Virus record (IMG/VR): IMGVR_UViG_647533160_000006 | Coordinates: 1 to 41,987 of that record | Length of the DNA stretch: 41,987 nt | Direction: 5' to 3' (one strand) | Origin: a virus | Lineage: Duplodnaviria > Heunggongvirae > Uroviricota > Caudoviricetes | Part shown: one piece after another, positions 26,984-32,447 of the stretch | Numbering within the stretch: position 1 is the stretch's first letter | How the letters are laid out: the number at the start of each line of letters is the position of its first letter | Position numbers and translations under genes: made by a program | Notes under the pieces: generated by a model | Database searches by the model: none | What the model was told of the DNA's origin: nothing | What the model saw: only the letters and a program-made list of their open reading frames with translations

Positions 26984-27120
26984 AGGTGAGCCGTGTAGTT
27001 GAAGGTTTTTACGTCAGATTCTTTTGGGATTGGCTTGCGTTTATTTCTGGAGCGTTTCGTTGGAAGGTATTTGCAGTTTTCGCAGATGATGTCGGTGAAA
27101 CTTCGTCGCTGTCGCCTCAT
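26944..27120 (-). CDS. ninD: NinD-like small protein
   Basis: From [58 protein letters not shown]; resembles lambda NinD from memory; start overlaps ninB stop. Confidence 0.55.
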
Positions 27121-27557
27121 GCCGCCCTGTCTCCCCATCTTGCTTTCCACTCCAGAGCCAGTCGCGCTTCGTCTGACCACTTAACGCCACGTTCTGTACC
27201 GAATGCCTGTATAAGCTCTAATAGCTCCGCAAATTCGCTTACACGCATCCTGCTGGTTGACTGTCCTATTACCACAAAGCCATTCCCGGCAAGGTTAGGA
27301 ACAACGTCCTGCTGCTTTAATGCTGCGGTAAACACACACTTCCAGCTTTCTGCATCCAGCCAGCGACCATGCCATTCAACCTGACGAGAGACGTCACCTA
27401 AGCAGGCCCATAGCTTCCTGTTCTGGTCTAAGCTGCGGTTGCGTTCCTGAATGGTTACTACGATTGGTTTGGTTGGGTCTGGAAGAATTTGCTGTACTGC
27501 GTGAATAGCGTTTTGCTGATGTGCTGGAGATCGAATTTCAAAGGTTAGTTTTTTCAT
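27117..27557 (-). CDS. ninB: NinB (Orf recombination mediator)
   Basis: From [50 protein letters not shown], matching recalled lambda NinB. Confidence 0.85.
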
Positions 27558-27571
27558 GACTTCCCTCTCCC

Positions 27572-27605
27572 CCAAATAAAAAGGCCTGCGATTACCAGCA
27601 GGCCT
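27572..27605 (-). terminator. tR2-like intrinsic terminator between replication genes and nin region
   Basis: Minus-strand read AGGCCTGC-TGGTAATC-GCAGGCCT followed by TTTTTATTTGG, right after the primase-helicase stop. Confidence 0.65.
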
Positions 27606-27634
27606 GTTATTAGCTCAGTGATGTAGATGGTCAT

Positions 27635-29515
27635 TTAATACTCCGTCACGTTTTCCTGTCGCCACGCCTCGTCATATTCCGATTTCGGCATATTGGCGAT
27701 GTAGCTATATGGCGATCCTGATTCAAGTTGCAGGAACTGGTGCGATTGCTCGTCAAGGAACAACGGGACACCACCTTCCCAACCTTCGCCGTTACGTTGT
27801 TTTTCAAGCATCAAAACAGATGCCGGAGACGCCAGTAGCTGTTCGTCCTTCTCTGACATCTTTTCACCACTCTGAACTCTCTGTAACGCTCTCTCGCGAG
27901 CCTTGTTACGCCAGATGATGAAAAGGTTGTCTGTCAGGTCTGTTATCGCTCCAGAGCCTTTTACGTCCATTTTCCCGGTTGGTTTTTCTTCGCTGTCTCC
28001 TTTTCGCGAGTGAGTAACGAGAATGACGTGGGAGTTTGTTTTGTTTTTGAAGTCGCAAATCGAGTCAACAAACGCCTTCTGCCCGTTATAGTCATCGTCG
28101 CCTATGCCACATTTCATCAGGCTGTCGATGATGAATAACTGGATCCCGTATCGGCGGCGAGCGTAGTCGAATATTTCGATCAGCCTGTCGGCTTTCGCCG
28201 TTCCGGTCAGGCCAAACACCCAAAGTCTTTCGTCATAAAATTTAAATGCAGAGTCAATTTCCAGCACTGGCGGAATCTTGCAGCACGTCGCCTGACGGGT
28301 AAGGCGCTTAAGGAGAATACCAGGCTTCAGCTCAAGTGACGCGATGCACGTCTTCACACCCTGACGCATTGCCTCAAGTGCCATATGCCCGACAACCTCC
28401 GTTTTTCCGTGACCGTTCACACCATTGACCAGCGTCAACTCTGCCTCACGGAACTGGAATTTATCTGCCAGAGATTCCCACGGTGGATTAAACAGATACT
28501 GCTGCTTGCCGTAGAAAGCATTGATAGTGTCCTGGTAAAACTCTCGCGCACTGTAGAGTTCTTCAGGATCGAAGTAGGATGCCGTGCCGATGTACTGCCA
28601 GATTTCATCCTCGGTAACACCGTTCATCAGGCATTCGTTGATGTCTTTGTACGGCAGAGTAACAAGACGGCAACGATGTTCACCGAGTCGGCTTGCGATT
28701 TCCCTTGCGGCTTCACGACCAACATCATCAACGTCCATCGAGATGAATATTTCCTCAAACCTGTCGAGATTGTGATACTCAAACTCAATCCACTGCTGCT
28801 TAGCGCCTTTCCCGCCACCAAACGGCACGGATAACGCCGAGATGCCGTATTGCGCATAGCTCATACAATCAATTTCGCCTTCGCAAAGTACAACCGCCCT
28901 CACGCCAGCGTCCAGAGCCTGCCATCCGAACAGACAAGGTTCGCAATCACCTTCTGCCATAATGACTTTCTTCCCGTCCGGGCGCTCAGTGCTGATTCGC
29001 TTGACCTGCAACAACTCACCATCGCGTTTGTACGGAAGCACCAGTGCATCAAGTTCTCGTTCTCCATTCCACACCTTGCCGCTGACAACCTCGTAGCGCT
29101 TTACGACTTCTGGCGATATGCCACGCGATTGCAAGTACTCAAGATGGGATTCTGTTCTGGTAACGTAGCGGGCGATTTTCTTGCGATCAGGTCTGGAGAA
29201 TTTCTTCTCACGTTTGGCATCGAAATGGTGATCGTCATCCTTGATACCGAGAAATGCTTTCGCTTCCTGCATAGCCTGATGCAGGTTAATTCCACGACAT
29301 GCCATCCACAAATCAAGCATGTCACCGCCGTCTCCCTCAGCGAAATCAGCCCATTTTTTCTTGCCGCTAAGGTTGACCTTAAGGCTGTTTCCCTTGTCGC
29401 CGTTGACGTTACCGGCAACCCACTCATGCCCCTCTTTCTTGCCGTTTGGCAACAGGTGCGGAGCCACCCTGTCAACCTGCGCCCAAAGCAGGTCGCTGAG
29501 TTCACTTGGCGTCAT
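27635..29515 (-). CDS. Replicative primase-helicase (Toprim + DnaB/P-loop helicase domains)
   Basis: 626 aa; Toprim-like segment (VVLCEGEIDCMSYAQYGISALSVPFGGG) and Walker A (VNGVNGHGKT); occupies the lambda P position. Confidence 0.75.
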   Translation of the reverse strand: MTPSELSDLLWAQVDRVAPHLLPNGKKEGHEWVAGNVNGDKGNSLKVNLSGKKKWADFAEGDGGDMLDLWMACRGINLHQAMQEAKAFLGIKDDDHHFDAKREKKFSRPDRKKIARYVTRTESHLEYLQSRGISPEVVKRYEVVSGKVWNGERELDALVLPYKRDGELLQVKRISTERPDGKKVIMAEGDCEPCLFGWQALDAGVRAVVLCEGEIDCMSYAQYGISALSVPFGGGKGAKQQWIEFEYHNLDRFEEIFISMDVDDVGREAAREIASRLGEHRCRLVTLPYKDINECLMNGVTEDEIWQYIGTASYFDPEELYSAREFYQDTINAFYGKQQYLFNPPWESLADKFQFREAELTLVNGVNGHGKTEVVGHMALEAMRQGVKTCIASLELKPGILLKRLTRQATCCKIPPVLEIDSAFKFYDERLWVFGLTGTAKADRLIEIFDYARRRYGIQLFIIDSLMKCGIGDDDYNGQKAFVDSICDFKNKTNSHVILVTHSRKGDSEEKPTGKMDVKGSGAITDLTDNLFIIWRNKARERALQRVQSGEKMSEKDEQLLASPASVLMLEKQRNGEGWEGGVPLFLDEQSHQFLQLESGSPYSYIANMPKSEYDEAWRQENVTEY

Positions 29516-29622
29516 GATTCCCTCAGATTGAGATTTTTAAACCAGAAATCGACAAACGAAATACTTAACCAACCGTGGTTATAACCAGCGACCAGTAGCG
29601 ATTTGATTTTTGATTTCATGGT

Positions 29623-30483
29623 TCACCTGTCGAAAAACACGTAGCCAGTTTTCGATACGGTGATTGCGGATGATGGTTTGGATTGTGGTTGAATAGTTTC
29701 TGGCTTCTCGTCGTTCCAGCGTTGACCGTTCAGGTAGCTCGATGGTAACAACCTGTCGAATCCGAACTGCTTACCATTCCTGCATGCGATGTCTTCTGCC
29801 AGCATCGTGGCAAACTCTCTTGCCGTACCCTTGGTAGTTTTACGCCATTCCCTGAACTGTGTTCTGAATGCCGAAGCTGCGTTTTTCTTCCCGGCTTTCC
29901 GCATGCCTGCACACCAGAATATTTCCTCGAATGCCTTGTCGGTTTCTTCGTGACGGTCATGTGATTTTTCACACTCCGTCCGAACACTTTCGGACATAGT
30001 GTTTTTATTATTTCTTTTTTCTTTTGTAATAGTTTCTTTTGTGTGTCCCTGTTTTGGTGACAGCGCTGTCACCGTTTTGGTGACACTTTTTGTCACCAAT
30101 GCAGTGACATTATCACCAGAGTAGTGACACCCTTCTATTTGCCATTCCTCGATGTTCTTGTTAGGCCCGATTTGCTGGCCTTCGCGAAGGATAACCTTCA
30201 TCGCGATAAGCTCATTCTTGGCCTTGTTTACCTTCTGTCTTGGCAGCCTGGTAATTTGAGCTAACTGACTATCAGAGATGCGATCCATCTTTTTACCGTA
30301 GCCGTATGTTTTACGGCATATGGCGTGGGCAACCTTGCTCTGATTTTTAGTTAAATCTGCGCCGATAAGCTCTTCATACAGGGCATTTGCAAGACGGGTA
30401 TAACCATCTTCAACTTCTGCCACACGACGCTCCACAGGCCGTTGTGAAGGCCTTAAATGTGTTACGGTTGCAAGATTACTCAT
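29623..30483 (-). CDS. O: Replication initiator, lambda O-like
   Basis: N-terminal region ...[56 protein letters not shown] resembles lambda O; iterons lie inside the gene. Confidence 0.8.
30050..30135. repeat. Replication origin iterons (about 4 GGTGACA/TGTCACC dyad repeats) with adjacent AT-rich tract
   Basis: GTTTTGGTGACAGCGCTGTCACC, GTTTTGGTGACACTTTTTGTCACC, CAGTGACATTATCACC, AGTAGTGACACC in series inside the O-like gene; AT-rich tract at ~30000-30045. Confidence 0.7.
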
Positions 30484-30622
30484 GACCTTTCTCCTTCTGC
30501 ATCAGCTTCACTTTTTCCAACTCAGCCCGGAATCGACCAGGCTGCTTGAAGCTGGACAGGAAGCGATCACGTAGTATGTGTTTGTGAATTTTGTCCTGGT
30601 AAGGACTGAGTTGTTTTGTCAT
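30476..30622 (-). CDS. Small hypothetical protein (48 aa) between cII and O
   Basis: ATG 5 nt after AGGAG; [48 protein letters not shown]; stop overlaps O start. Confidence 0.4.
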
Positions 30623-30656
30623 AATTACTCCTGTGGATTGATCCAGTCTTTCTACA

Positions 30657-30935
30657 TCAGGCCTCGAAGAATTCGCCGTTCTTCGGGGCTTTTTCTTTTG
30701 TCAGCATTCTGGCTACTTGCTTAGCCAGTTCCGCCAACTCCTCGTCTTCAACACCCCATTCAAGAACAGCCAGAAGCATTCCCATTTTTGGGATGAAGCT
30801 ATCTTTCCATCGCGAAATTTGCGATTCATTAATCCCTAACGCGTCGGCAACCTTTCGCTGACCACGTACAGCAATTCGATTCAGGATGTTGCTTGTAATT
30901 GCATTCGCTTTCTTGCGAGTACTTGTAAGTTCCAT
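30657..30935 (-). CDS. cII: CII-like transcriptional activator
   Basis: From [62 protein letters not shown], resembling lambda CII; AAGGAAA RBS; the track ORF is extended upstream. Confidence 0.8.
30661..30700 (+). terminator. Plus-strand intrinsic terminator antisense to cII 3' end (OOP-like)
   Basis: GCCTCGAAGAA-TTCGCCGT-TCTTCGGGGC followed by TTTTTCTTTTG on the strand opposite cII. Confidence 0.6.
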
Positions 30936-30992
30936 ATGTAAGTATTTCCTTAACAAATAAGAAGTTATGCGCATCAACTTATGCGCGTTGTA

Positions 30993-31037
30993 TTCCCGCA
31001 TTTCGGCGGGAATGATGACCATGACTGTTAAAGAGCG
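30993..31037 (-). promoter_or_regulatory. nutR (boxA + boxB)
   Basis: Minus-strand read CGCTCTTTAACAG (boxA) then hairpin TCCCGC-CGAAAT-GCGGGA (boxB) between cro and cII; boxB is identical to the nutL copy. Confidence 0.75.
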
Positions 31038-31043
31038 GTGTTA

Positions 31044-31238
31044 CTATTTGTTTTTCTTGTTGCTTGGGAAAGGACGAACTTCCTCTCCAATCACACTGCC
31101 ATCAGGCTTTACCGTAACCATGATGTTACGGCCTGCCAGAATGGCCTTGCTGATAGCGCACTGGATTACACCAAAGTCACTGGCTGCTTTAGCCTGTCCA
31201 TGGATTTTGGCGTAATCGGCAAGTGTCATTCGAATCAT
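31044..31238 (-). CDS. cro: Cro-like repressor
   Basis: C-terminal part [40 protein letters not shown] parallels lambda Cro; GGAGA RBS; divergent from cI. Confidence 0.8.
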
Positions 31239-31268
31239 ATGCACTCTCCGTTATTAACCATGAACAAA

Positions 31269-31333
31269 GAATACTACAGGTATTCAAAGCAATCAATACT
31301 CAGGGTATTTTTAGTTTAAGTACCTTAGCTATT
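31269..31333. promoter_or_regulatory. OR operator cluster with pR/pRM
   Basis: GAATAC-N5-GTATTC at 31269-31285, AATAC-N5-GTATT at 31294-31310, weaker AGTAC-N5-CTATT at 31318-31333, ~25 bp apart; TAGAAT -10 six nt before the cI ATG. Confidence 0.7.
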
Positions 31334-31344
31334 AGAATTAAGCT

Positions 31345-32061
31345 ATGGAAAATAAAAAATCACTGACGACAGAACAGCTCGAAGACGCTAAGCGGCTTAA
31401 GGCTTTGTATGAGTCAAAAAAGAAAGAATTGGGAATAACCCAATACTCAATCGCTGATGAACTGGGTATCACCCAAGGAGCGGTAGGGCATTATCTTAAT
31501 GGCAGAAACGCGCTAAACGTTGAGGTTGCATCTGGTTTTGCACGATTGTTGCAAGTCTCAATTGCTGATTTTAGCCAGTCAATTGCTGCCAAGGTTGCAG
31601 AACAGGCAGAAAGCCTTAAGAGCGATGCCAACGTAAGGTATGCAGGGGAATACAGAGCAGGAAAGAGGTATCCGGTGTTAAGCAGTATCCAGGCTGGCTC
31701 GTGGTGTGAAGCATGCGAACCATACACCATTAAAGACATAGATGTTTGGCTTGAGTCTGACGCGCATATTCAAGGTAATGCGTTTTGGCTTAAAGTGGAA
31801 GGTGATTCAATGACGGCACCGGTTGGGTTAAGCATTCCAGAGGGAACATTCGTTCTTTTCGATACCGGAAGGGAGGCGATCAACGGCAGCTTGGTCATAG
31901 CAAAACTTTCTGACTCTAACGAAGCAACATTCAAGAAGCTGATAATCGACGGAGGAAATAAATACCTCAAGGGACTTAACCCTGCATGGCCTCTCGTGCC
32001 AATCAATGGAAACTGCAAGATTATAGGCGTTGCAATTGAGACAAAACTAAGGCTGGTTTGA
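31345..32061 (+). CDS. cI: CI-like prophage repressor (HTH + LexA-type S24 peptidase domain)
   Basis: 238 aa; N-terminus LTTEQLEDAKRLKALYESKKKELGITQYSIADELG parallels lambda CI; C-terminal ...VEGDSMTAP...FKKLI... autocleavage-domain pattern. Confidence 0.85.
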   Translation: MENKKSLTTEQLEDAKRLKALYESKKKELGITQYSIADELGITQGAVGHYLNGRNALNVEVASGFARLLQVSIADFSQSIAAKVAEQAESLKSDANVRYAGEYRAGKRYPVLSSIQAGSWCEACEPYTIKDIDVWLESDAHIQGNAFWLKVEGDSMTAPVGLSIPEGTFVLFDTGREAINGSLVIAKLSDSNEATFKKLIIDGGNKYLKGLNPAWPLVPINGNCKIIGVAIETKLRLV

Positions 32062-32078
32062 TCACGCAAGGGGCGCTT

Positions 32079-32447
32079 ATGGTTGGAACCGCTATAGCAA
32101 GCTTTTTTGGGATGTTGGCAATCTCGACAATTTACGGCTTAGCGCATGCTTTTATTGCGAAATCTCTATCAGAAAAAATAAGCCAGGCTTGGGCGCATAG
32201 GTCAGCTCGTTTCATGATTCTGGTGATCATAGCAATACAAGGGATATCTGCATTTATCCTCTATGGATCAAGCTTATACCTATTGTATCAAGGCGCGACA
32301 TTTACGCCTTACACCAGTGATTACGGAACTCTATACGATGGTAGTGAAGACATCTCTATGGCTTGGATTGTCTTTGGTTTATCTATGGCCGTGTCTGTTG
32401 TAGCAGATATCATTAAGGTAATTCTCGTCTTAACCTTCGCTGACTAA
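32079..32447 (+). CDS. Small multi-TM membrane protein co-transcribed with cI (rex slot)
   Basis: ATG 6 nt after AAGGGG; ~122 aa with four hydrophobic segments; overlaps/abuts cI stop; no similarity to RexA/RexB that I can see. Confidence 0.6.
   Translation: MVGTAIASFFGMLAISTIYGLAHAFIAKSLSEKISQAWAHRSARFMILVIIAIQGISAFILYGSSLYLLYQGATFTPYTSDYGTLYDGSEDISMAWIVFGLSMAVSVVADIIKVILVLTFAD

Follow-up and report, generated by a model that had tools for sequence, protein, structure and literature searches.

A probable ES18-type replication cassette pairing an O-like initiator with a gp4/Twinkle-type primase-helicase in a P22-like lambdoid prophage

The replication segment of the early-right operon in the window (the whole 41,987-nucleotide stretch of DNA analysed) is, with a probability of roughly 0.75, the already described ES18-type replication module of a P22-like lambdoid prophage, and the mechanism proposed below for this type of cassette is held, as a whole, at the same strength. 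An O-like initiator, with its origin inside its own gene, is followed by a phage-encoded primase-helicase in the place where lambda carries P, and a conserved 35-aa protein is encoded between the two. The architecture is already known and has been in GenBank since 2005, and its recovery from this sequence adds little.

Layout and relatives of the cassette

All ORFs of the cassette lie on the minus strand, in the order 48-aa DUF2740 protein, 286-aa O-like initiator, 35-aa ORF, 626-aa primase-helicase and 26-aa NinA. The features are as follows.

30476..30622, minus strand: 48-aa DUF2740 protein (P22 orf48 / HK022 5.8-kDa protein; Pfam PF10872, 8.9e-29)
29623..30483, minus strand: O-like origin-binding initiator, 286 aa (Phage_rep_O, TIGR01610, lambda O alignment)
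30044..30129, no strand: four 19-bp iterons TGTCACC-N5-GGTGACA, spaced 20-24 bp, at O codons ~119-147
30000..30043, no strand: A+T-rich, strand-asymmetric, predicted unwinding region (15% GC over 30000-30039)
29971..30002, no strand: palindrome with 14-nt arms, flanking the A+T-rich region
29512..29619, minus strand: 35-aa micro-protein (ES18 gp60 family; phrog_21848, 4.4e-26)
27635..29515, minus strand: gp4/Twinkle-type primase-helicase, 626 aa (Toprim_2, AAA_25, PHROG 239)
29240..29446, minus strand: its zinc-less ZBD-like domain (aa ~24-92)
28616..29203, minus strand: its DnaG-type RNA-polymerase/Toprim domain (aa ~105-300)
27731..28513, minus strand: its SF4 helicase domain (aa ~335-595)
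27554..27634, minus strand: NinA, 26-aa hydrophobic micro-ORF (phrog_5907, 1.6e-19)
27582..27605, minus strand: intrinsic-terminator-like hairpin and T-run within ninA

The first four ORFs, including the sequence quoted for the 35-aa ORF, agree in position with the sequence-only reading, whose pairing of an O-like initiator with a primase-helicase is borne out by the profile matches of the two proteins (Phage_rep_O, 1.3e-37; PHROG 239, 2e-171).

The shared order of O, 35-aa gene and 626-aa primase-helicase, together with high identity, places the cassette in the ES18 type. Positions 27500-30700 are shared by ES18, epsilon34, g341c, Sf101, mEp043, SEN22, phi24B and Min27 at 88-99% DNA identity, with 98-99% for the cassette against Sf101 and mEp043 and ~88% against ES18. 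ES18 genes 58-63 and epsilon34 genes 49-54 follow a window-like order (DUF2740, O with the ori, 35-aa, 626-aa, NinA, NinB) but, unlike the window, carry an additional 92-aa gene (gp62/gp53) ahead of NinA. The ES18 GenBank record AY736146 (2005) annotates gp59 (O), gp60 (35 aa, function unknown) and gp61 ('putative primase/helicase; similar to phage T7 gene 4'), and already marks the ori within gene 59. The primase-helicase module has also been named as a third type of lambdoid/P22-like replication module (PMC10307801), and the novelty implied by the sequence-only reading finds no support. At least a partial DNA match to 27500-30700 is present in 2,133 of 5,426 complete E. coli genomes, and the whole stretch in 167; besides O, the 35-aa gene and the helicase gene, this query takes in NinA, part of NinB, DUF2740 and the 3' end of cII. 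A literature search found no experiment on any member of the cassette or on its host-factor requirements, ES18 being known here through its GenBank record. The Eru1-3 replication types of Stx phages were also compared and have gene sets that differ from the ES18-type cassette, and an Rfam scan of 27000-32200 gave no family above threshold.

The 48-aa ORF, noted earlier for its strong RBS ahead of O, indeed has one (ACAGGAGTAATTATG) and shares its final 8 nt with the start of O (ATGAGTAA). Its product scores 99.4 bits against a DUF2740 gathering cutoff of 27. HK022, HK620 and Sakai Stx phages encode a protein with 100% identity to it, and P22 orf48 one with 85%; DUF2740 thus precedes O or gene 18 irrespective of which kind of helicase follows. 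At the other end, NinA starts directly after the helicase stop (TAA-ATG) and is annotated in Sf101, ES18 and epsilon34. The two tightly coupled micro-ORFs of the sequence-only reading are both present, but NinA, a third, had been passed over. Neither DUF2740 nor NinA is specific to the gp4-like helicase type; each is a mosaic micro-gene of its own. The hairpin within ninA marks the end of the replication segment in the early-right operon; its place is tR2-like, the comparison with lambda tR2 being one of position only.

Initiator, origin and proposed mechanism

The N-terminal half of the initiator (residues 1-157) is 49% identical to lambda O residues 1-155 and includes a winged-helix domain, with residues 20-114 matching Phage_rep_O (PF04492, 1.3e-37) and a further match to TIGR01610 (1.5e-30). 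Beyond residue 157 there is no similarity to lambda O residues 156-299, which we take, from established lambda genetics, to be the P-binding domain. This C-terminal domain (O-C; residues ~160-286, nt 29626-30006) gave no match in a Pfam search but matches phrog_33384, and O-C of this type is found almost only beside the gp4-like helicase family. The lambda combination of a P-binding C-terminal domain with a P gene downstream is absent here. No P homologue follows O, and the next large gene encodes the gp4/Twinkle-type protein, in line with the replacement of P claimed by the sequence-only reading. Pfam and PHROG matches revealed no P-, DnaC- or DnaD-like loader among the cassette genes.

The origin, which the sequence-only reading had not mentioned, lies within the O coding sequence, which holds both the iterons and the A+T-rich region. 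The four clustered iterons have 0-2 mismatches each, and the remaining 42-kb window contains only two matches, with 3 mismatches, against 1.3 expected by chance. The elements are ordered iterons, A+T-rich stretch, palindrome; the lambda record likewise shows four iterons within O, and the lambda ori presumably has the same order, including the A+T-rich stretch and palindrome. The A+T-rich stretch encodes a conserved linker of 14 residues that is also kept in lambda O. ES18 has lambda-type iterons (TCCCTC-N6-GAGGGA), whereas the window has TGTCACC-N5-GGTGACA with a matching N-terminal O domain (O-N), and phi24B has GGGCAGCTCC repeats in their place; between the window and its ES18-type relatives only this origin-specificity part, iterons plus O-N, differs.

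The cassette resembles the lambda system in its O-N and in its four iterons, in lying between cII and the nin region of the pR operon, and in its modular genetics, O-N pairing with the iterons and O-C with the partner protein. It differs in having no P and a non-homologous O-C; the phage supplies an SF4 primase-helicase as partner, where lambda has a loader that captures host DnaB.

In the proposed mechanism, the N-terminal winged-helix domain of O would bind the four iterons in its own gene and open the adjacent A+T-rich stretch, as homology to lambda O and the anatomy of the ori suggest. O-C, judging by its linkage to the 35-aa gene and the helicase gene, would bring the phage-encoded hexameric SF4 helicase to the origin once this is open, and DnaB and a loader of the DnaC/P type would therefore not be needed. 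The 626-aa protein would probably, though less certainly, lay primers itself through its DnaG-type Toprim domain, which has all the catalytic acidic residues, with template recognition that may be altered or relaxed because the zinc ribbon has lost all its metal ligands. Synthesis would fall to host Pol III, and the 35-aa protein would be made in fixed proportion through translational coupling, most likely as a small accessory that the O-C/helicase complex can do without, the main alternative being a host-directed role.

Comparable arrangements are known elsewhere. In SPP1 (G38P-G39P-G40P) an origin binder is combined with the phage's own helicase, and the gene of a small protein lies between theirs; the iteron binder of RSF1010 (RepC-RepA-RepB') recruits a helicase and a primase that the plasmid itself encodes. 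P22 genes 18 and 12 similarly combine a lambdoid initiator with a phage-encoded hexameric helicase that makes host DnaB unnecessary, and have the same DUF2740 orf48 upstream, but gp12 is of the DnaB type and has no primase domain, and the primase-helicase of this type of cassette is described as non-homologous to it (PMC10307801).

The 35-aa micro-protein

The 35-aa ORF is confirmed, on its pattern of sequence variation, as a real conserved gene under purifying selection. All 31 distinct intact variants have exactly 35 codons, with a median pN of 0.28, a pS of 0.73, a dN/dS of ~0.22 and entropy peaks at the third codon position. Of the other sense frames, one is closed in 30 of these variants and one in all 31; the three antisense frames are closed in 21-31. 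Across six distinct variants, with identity to the window peptide down to 49%, 15 residues are invariant, and the window protein carries the family motif MK..[IL]K..L[IV].GYNHG.L...[FV]V...F....LR...

The ATGA coupling that had been proposed for both ends of the ORF exists at the helicase junction, where the 35-aa stop overlaps the helicase ATG, but not at the O junction, where 3 nt separate the O stop from the 35-aa start (GAC AGG TGA ACC ATG) and AGGTGA forms the Shine-Dalgarno sequence of the 35-aa ORF. Readthrough from O, in frame here (TGA ACC ATG), was rejected as a general explanation, the gap in relatives being -4, 1, 2, 4, 5, 7, 8 or 9 nt.

Searches for related proteins added few leads. 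A phmmer search with the peptide against 1.84 billion representatives gave only 5 matches, one of them an in-frame fusion of the 35-aa protein to O-C (P0125); two others were repeat proteins aligned over 17-19 residues only and were discarded. The unrelated 'pentapeptide repeat' fragments in the 90% cluster of the 35-aa protein are a clustering artefact. A profile of the family found nothing meaningful among PDB sequences, and a single-sequence AlphaFold model of the O-C fusion (pLDDT 61, low), which hints at a helix-turn-helix hairpin, was kept out of the evidence.

The gene is confined to Enterobacterales. All non-enterobacterial relatives lack it. So do three Enterobacterales loci whose O-C is of the same type and whose O and helicase ORFs are intact, including clean deletions in Xenorhabdus and Providencia. 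Since these three loci lost it while keeping O and helicase intact, the protein is probably, from this comparative pattern, an accessory, and together with the non-enterobacterial relatives they show that it cannot be an essential loader. SPP1 G39P, in contrast, is an essential loader of 126 aa, and the comparison with SPP1 and RSF1010 is one of layout.

A tentative joint reading makes the 35-aa protein either a dedicated third initiation component (a mini-adaptor) or an Enterobacterales-specific peptide that inactivates a host replication protein, and supposes in addition that the zinc-less primase domain still primes. As an adaptor, it may be a two-helix protein that docks on O-C and modulates, in an origin-specific way, how a self-loading gp4-type helicase is loaded. 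It is possible, if doubtful, that the protein instead acts wholly outside the initiation complex and merely shares the replication operon, as a host-directed factor that, for instance, inhibits or modulates a replication protein of the enterobacterial host. Its restriction to Enterobacterales, when the initiator-helicase pair is far more widespread, would fit such a role, as would its clean deletion in the Xenorhabdus and Providencia loci and a conservation well below that of the helicase (71% against 95% identity between window and epsilon34). The place of the gene argues for the initiation complex: it lies between O and the helicase, with stops and starts overlapping or nearly so, in 32 of 32 loci examined, it was not found apart from a gp4-like helicase among the 44 phage records with a match, its divergence tracks that of the helicase, and it is fused in frame to O-C in one case.

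Primase-helicase and host factors

The domain search proposed in the sequence-only reading returned Toprim_2 (3e-12), AAA_25 and a DnaB_C match below cutoff, and residues 2-622 of the 626-aa protein match PHROG 239 'DNA primase/helicase' (2e-171). The three-part architecture is that of T7 gp4 and of mitochondrial and plastid Twinkle, with the same Toprim, Walker A/B and histidine residues. The Toprim residues E212, D261, D263 and D291 align to T7 E157, D207, D209 and D237, and the SF4 motifs GHGK371T, E395, D464 and H502 align to T7 K318, E343, D424 and H465 (T7 residues numbered from 6n7i chain indices); the Toprim residues are invariant in 22 homologues, and those of the SF4 motifs are invariant as well. 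Unlike T7 gp4 and Twinkle, the protein lacks zinc ligands and has a lysine at the position aligned with the arginine finger. It further differs from them in belonging to a temperate phage with a proposed initiator-bound origin, in lacking the T7-type acidic polymerase-binding tail (its C-terminus is a conserved ...NVTEY), and in the company it keeps, no polymerase-like ORF having been seen among the 11 of 15 window ORFs of >=300 aa that were scanned.

A DnaG-type RNA-polymerase domain fold lies N-terminal to the helicase. The assignment of this domain and of the ZBD rests on TIGR01391, which aligns residues 26-143 to DnaG positions 27-155, and on a fold search, since profile searches of the N-terminal 195 residues against PDB sequences gave nothing meaningful. 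The AlphaFold model places small beta strands at residues 26-64 and has low confidence in the helicase half. No proteobacterial relative has a Cys or His at the ligand positions of a Cys4/CHC2 zinc ribbon. At the position of the T7 arginine finger R522 there is an invariant lysine (MDVK519GSG); this lysine or a nearby arginine (R504, R536) may fill the role. In T7, R522K is defective. The Toprim, Walker and histidine residues are kept, the zinc ligands are lost and a lysine takes the arginine-finger position. It can therefore reasonably be inferred that replication does without host DnaB and DnaC; a bypass of DnaG is less secure.

Template recognition by T7 gp4 is directed by its zinc-binding domain. 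[quoted passage not shown] This precedent, and the clade-wide loss of all four zinc ligands when distant Firmicutes and Bacteroidota relatives keep their Cys/His fingers, raise the rather unlikely alternative that the 626-aa protein is the replicative helicase but its primase half is catalytically silent or serves DNA binding only, with primers still made by host DnaG or RNA polymerase. The Mg-binding residues E212, D261, D263 and D291 are invariant, however, unlike those of human Twinkle. Conservation over the N-terminal 300 residues equals that of the helicase part, and the zinc-less domain has a strongly conserved motif (EW.xG..G..G.SL...L.G...W.DF..G..GDLLDLW), which argues for a retained function. 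Elsewhere, the P22 gene 12 helicase works with host DnaG, which favours a silent primase half, whereas plasmid Toprim primases without zinc fingers are active, which favours priming by the phage protein.

Firing of the origin through host DnaB, with the 626-aa protein active at some other stage (restart, for example, or late rolling-circle replication), is very improbable. Host factors can apparently suffice for O-type initiators, since 34 of 314 lambdoid phages encode an O homologue only, with no helicase or loader (PMC12315714); in this cassette, however, O-C is unrelated to that of lambda O and almost confined to the neighbourhood of the gp4-like helicase family, and no P-, DnaC- or DnaD-like loader accompanies it. 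Least credible is that the 35-codon ORF is a mere translational-coupling spacer or a chance ORF with a functionless peptide: it is very short, is left unannotated by PGAP in E. coli genomes and in the Sf101, SEN22 and phi24B records (and in mEp043, judging by feature lists), and its last codons (L-R-E/S) hold the Shine-Dalgarno sequence of the helicase gene, to which some of the conservation could be due, but the uniform length, pN below pS, closed alternative frames and 15 invariant residues described above contradict it.

The one open point that the analysis sharpens is that the 35-aa protein is conserved yet dispensable; if it is an adaptor, it would be the smallest known helicase-loading accessory. 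If the zinc-less primase domain still primes, DnaG-type primases can work without a metal-bound ribbon. The cassette is common and is also predicted to drive replication of the medically relevant Stx2 phages phi24B and Min27, and a bypass of DnaB, DnaC and DnaG by these prophages would bear on Stx-phage induction and on the interpretation of defence systems that sense phage replication proteins.

Gene order and junctions of the replication module

The window prophage is a P22-like (Lederbergvirus-type) mosaic that also encodes integrase, tailspike, ejection proteins, portal, terminase and RecT. Its replication genes form a single tightly packed minus-strand run within the early-right operon:

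31044-31244, minus strand: cro, first in transcription order
30657-31022, minus strand: cII, between cro and the 48-aa ORF
30476-30622, minus strand: 48-aa ORF (DUF2740), between cII and O
29623-30483, minus strand: O-like gene, downstream of the 48-aa ORF
29512-29619, minus strand: 35-aa ORF (phrog_21848), between O and the helicase
27635-29515, minus strand: 626-aa primase-helicase ORF, between the 35-aa ORF and ninA
27554-27634, minus strand: 26-aa ORF (NinA), after the helicase and followed by ninB

The sequence-only reading had proposed an O-like initiator paired with a 626-aa primase-helicase, which is confirmed by matches to Phage_rep_O, Toprim_2 and PHROG 239, and a 48-aa ORF with a strong RBS ahead of O, which is present as ACAGGAGTAATT-ATG. 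That description holds in essence, with a single junction wrong: of the ATGA coupling claimed at both ends of the 35-aa ORF, only the helicase side holds, and the sequence on the O side reads GAC AGG TGA ACC ATG, with a 3-nt spacer. The 48-aa ORF and O overlap by 8 nt (ATGAGTAA), and the helicase and the 26-aa ORF meet at TAA-ATG.

The 48-aa ORF belongs to DUF2740 (8.9e-29), as do P22 orf48, HK620 hkaW and the HK022 5.8-kDa protein. Its sequence is identical in phages using lambda-type P or P22-type DnaB-like helicases, and it is therefore a cII-O junction gene rather than one specific to the ES18-type helicase. PHROG 1913 tags this family as 'tail protein', a label propagated to the RefSeq annotations of Sf101, mEp043, SEN22 and HK620; the unvarying location of the gene, between cII and O, speaks against that label. 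The 26-aa ORF is NinA (phrog_5907) and contains a terminator-like hairpin with a T-run (27582-27605, minus strand), in the same position as lambda tR2.

The mechanical cII ORF comprises 121 aa. With the Pfam CII match beginning only at residue 30 and a length of 93 aa annotated in relatives, the true start is probably an internal ATG near 30938. Antisense to the cII 3' end lies a strong terminator-like hairpin (14 pairs) with a T-run (30659-30701, plus strand), and a candidate weak promoter, CATAAT, is located within the 48-aa ORF at 30620-30625. This element resembles the lambda oop antisense RNA in position and size (~70 nt), and it has no Rfam match.

Initiator, origin and primase-helicase

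In the 286-aa O-like protein, Phage_rep_O covers residues 20-114 (1.3e-37). Identity to lambda O residues 1-155 is 49%, and from residue 158 onward the protein shows no similarity to lambda O. In lambda, the C-terminal part of O binds P. The origin lies inside O and consists of four 19-bp iterons, TGTCACC-N5-GGTGACA (30044-30129; 0-2 mismatches, 20-24 bp spacing), a pattern matched only twice in the rest of the 42-kb window, each time with 3 mismatches. In the direction of O transcription the iterons are followed by a strand-asymmetric stretch of 15% GC (30000-30039) and then by a palindrome (29971-30002). The lambda record likewise shows four iterons inside O. In the lambda origin, too, the iterons precede an A+T-rich stretch and then a palindrome.

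The domain search of the 626-aa protein returned Toprim_2 (3e-12), AAA_25 and an end-to-end match to PHROG 239, 'DNA primase/helicase' (2e-171), and from residue 191 onward sequence searches matched T7 gp4 structures (4e-23) and Twinkle (7e-14). Residues E212, D261, D263, D291, K371, E395, D464 and H502, equivalent to T7 E157, D207, D209, D237, K318, E343, D424 and H465, show no variation across 22 homologues with identities down to 69%. Unlike in T7 gp4, Cys and His ligands are lacking from the N-terminal ribbon (EW.AGN...W.DFAEG), and this is so in every proteobacterial relative to as little as 34% identity, whereas more distant Firmicutes and Bacteroidota relatives retain CxxC/CxxH motifs. 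The T7 arginine finger R522 aligns with a lysine, K519 (codon 27959-27961, MDVKGSG), also invariant in the 22 aligned homologues. Human Twinkle lost primase activity through mutations in its zinc-binding domain and its Mg site (PMC9860392), whereas the 626-aa protein has lost the zinc site alone, and priming by it is therefore plausible but unproven. The phi24B 'P' protein (968 aa; locus L004, HM208303, 1840-4746) corresponds to this primase-helicase but carries, close to the Walker A motif, an intein-like insert in which Hint and LAGLIDADG homing-endonuclease domains are present; such interrupted forms also occur in Min27 and a Cronobacter homologue (P0012).

Distribution and modularity of the ES18-type cassette

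Across the 3.2-kb region, DNA identity is 98.9% with Sf101, 98.7% with mEp043, 92% with SEN22 and ~88% with ES18, epsilon34 and g341c, and the right two-thirds of the region also occur in the Stx2 phages phi24B and Min27. Among 5,426 complete E. coli genomes, 2,133 have a partial match and 167 the full stretch. In the ES18 GenBank annotation, gp58 is likened to HK97 gene 53, gp59 resembles lambda gpO and has a rep_origin feature within it, gp60 is a 35-aa product listed with unknown function, gp61 carries the label 'putative primase/helicase; similar to phage T7 gene 4' and gp63 is NinA. The epsilon34 paper names an 'ES18 DNA replication gene region' (PMC2629481), and a 2023 survey of Anderson typing phages recognised an ES18-like third type of P22-like replication module, combining a distant O relative with a non-homologous primase-helicase (PMC10307801). 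This arrangement has thus been described before and is widespread. The Eru1-3 replication types found in Stx phages have other gene sets and were rejected as the same system.

Initiator genes directly coupled to this gp4-like helicase family are widespread, extending to temperate phages of Vibrio and Pseudomonas and to prophages of gamma- and alpha-proteobacteria, with helicase identities from 60% down to 34%. The helicases of Shimwellia pseudoproteus (L009) and Pseudocitrobacter faecalis (L010) are 99% and 92% identical to that of the window, and their micro-ORFs differ from the window peptide by one and two residues, indicating recent spread of the cassette across genera.

Among relatives, the initiator C-terminal domain (O-C, aa ~160-286), micro-ORF and helicase share ~95% protein identity, whereas the N-terminal halves (O-N, aa 1-157) and iterons differ, with lambda-type iterons (TCCCTC-N6-GAGGGA) in ES18, GGGCAGCTCCTGCCCCACCCC repeats in phi24B and 23-bp repeats in SaltyDalty. 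The Stx2 phage DNA match stops at 30007, exactly at the A+T-rich region. The cassette is therefore made up of two exchangeable units, O-N plus iterons, which determines origin specificity, and O-C plus the 35-aa gene and helicase, which determines the replication machinery, mirroring the classical O-N/ori versus O-C/P modularity of lambda. This layout is the best available evidence for O-C as a putative helicase-recruiting domain. Enterobacterial O-C proteins end in ...SG[LY]VF[FL]D, and distant proteobacterial prophage initiators (loci L040-L061), whose C-terminal domains are otherwise unrelated, share the tail ...[LM].[AEQ]GV[IL]-COOH; such a tail may be a helicase-docking peptide.

In the proposed mechanism, O would bind its own iterons and open the A+T-rich stretch, O-C would recruit the phage's own SF4 helicase in place of DnaB and the P/DnaC loaders, the Toprim domain would probably prime, and host Pol III would extend the primers. 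Replication would then be independent of DnaB, DnaC and DnaG; no published experimental test of host-factor dependence was found for any cassette member. No polymerase-like ORF occurred among ten scanned of the fifteen window ORFs of at least 300 aa.

The 35-aa gene

The 35-aa ORF matches phrog_21848 (4e-26), the ES18 gp60 family, with at least 71% identity in 39 phage records and ~50% in five more (SaltyDalty, LMessi, Fraca, CharmingMan and EKP1). It lies between the O-like gene and the primase-helicase in SaltyDalty, Fraca, EKP1 and the close relatives examined, and, with one genome taken per species, 28 of the 33 Enterobacterales loci that carry this helicase have it directly upstream. All 31 distinct variants have exactly 35 codons, entropy peaks at the third codon position and each of the five alternative frames is interrupted by stops in 21-31 of the 31. 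Median pN is 0.28 against a pS of 0.73 (dN/dS ~0.22), and 15 positions are invariant among six distinct protein variants (94% to 49% identity to the window peptide; consensus MK..[IL]K..L[IV]AGYNHG.L...FV...F....LR..). The ORF is thus a genuine gene, subject to purifying selection. In 30 of 32 loci its stop codon and the helicase start overlap (ATGA or TAATG); its start codon falls -4 to +9 nt from the O stop in the 32 loci, and its final codons also form the helicase Shine-Dalgarno sequence.

In the window, O and the 35-aa ORF share a reading frame, with only TGA ACC between them (29620-29625), a relation not conserved in relatives; in Symbiopectobacterium (L039) the pair is fused, truncated and pseudogene-like. 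The RefSeq (PGAP) features listed across the matched region of complete E. coli genomes include neither the 35-aa gene nor ninA, although the exact 35-aa sequence occurs in at least 1000 public contigs as 'uncharacterised protein'.

None of the non-enterobacterial relatives examined has the gene. Clean deletions of it occur in loci of Xenorhabdus yunnanensis and Providencia alcalifaciens, and in X. stockiae unrelated sequence takes its place; each of these three loci retains the same O-C type together with an intact helicase ORF of 628 aa. The 35-aa protein diverges faster than the helicase, and a single database protein (P0125) joins O-C in frame to the micro-protein. We conclude that the 35-aa protein is probably an accessory, dispensable in some relatives. 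Association with the O-C/helicase complex is its most likely role, a host-directed function being the main alternative. As the arrangement is known and widespread, its interest is low, and this conserved, dispensable protein is the sole point worth experiment.
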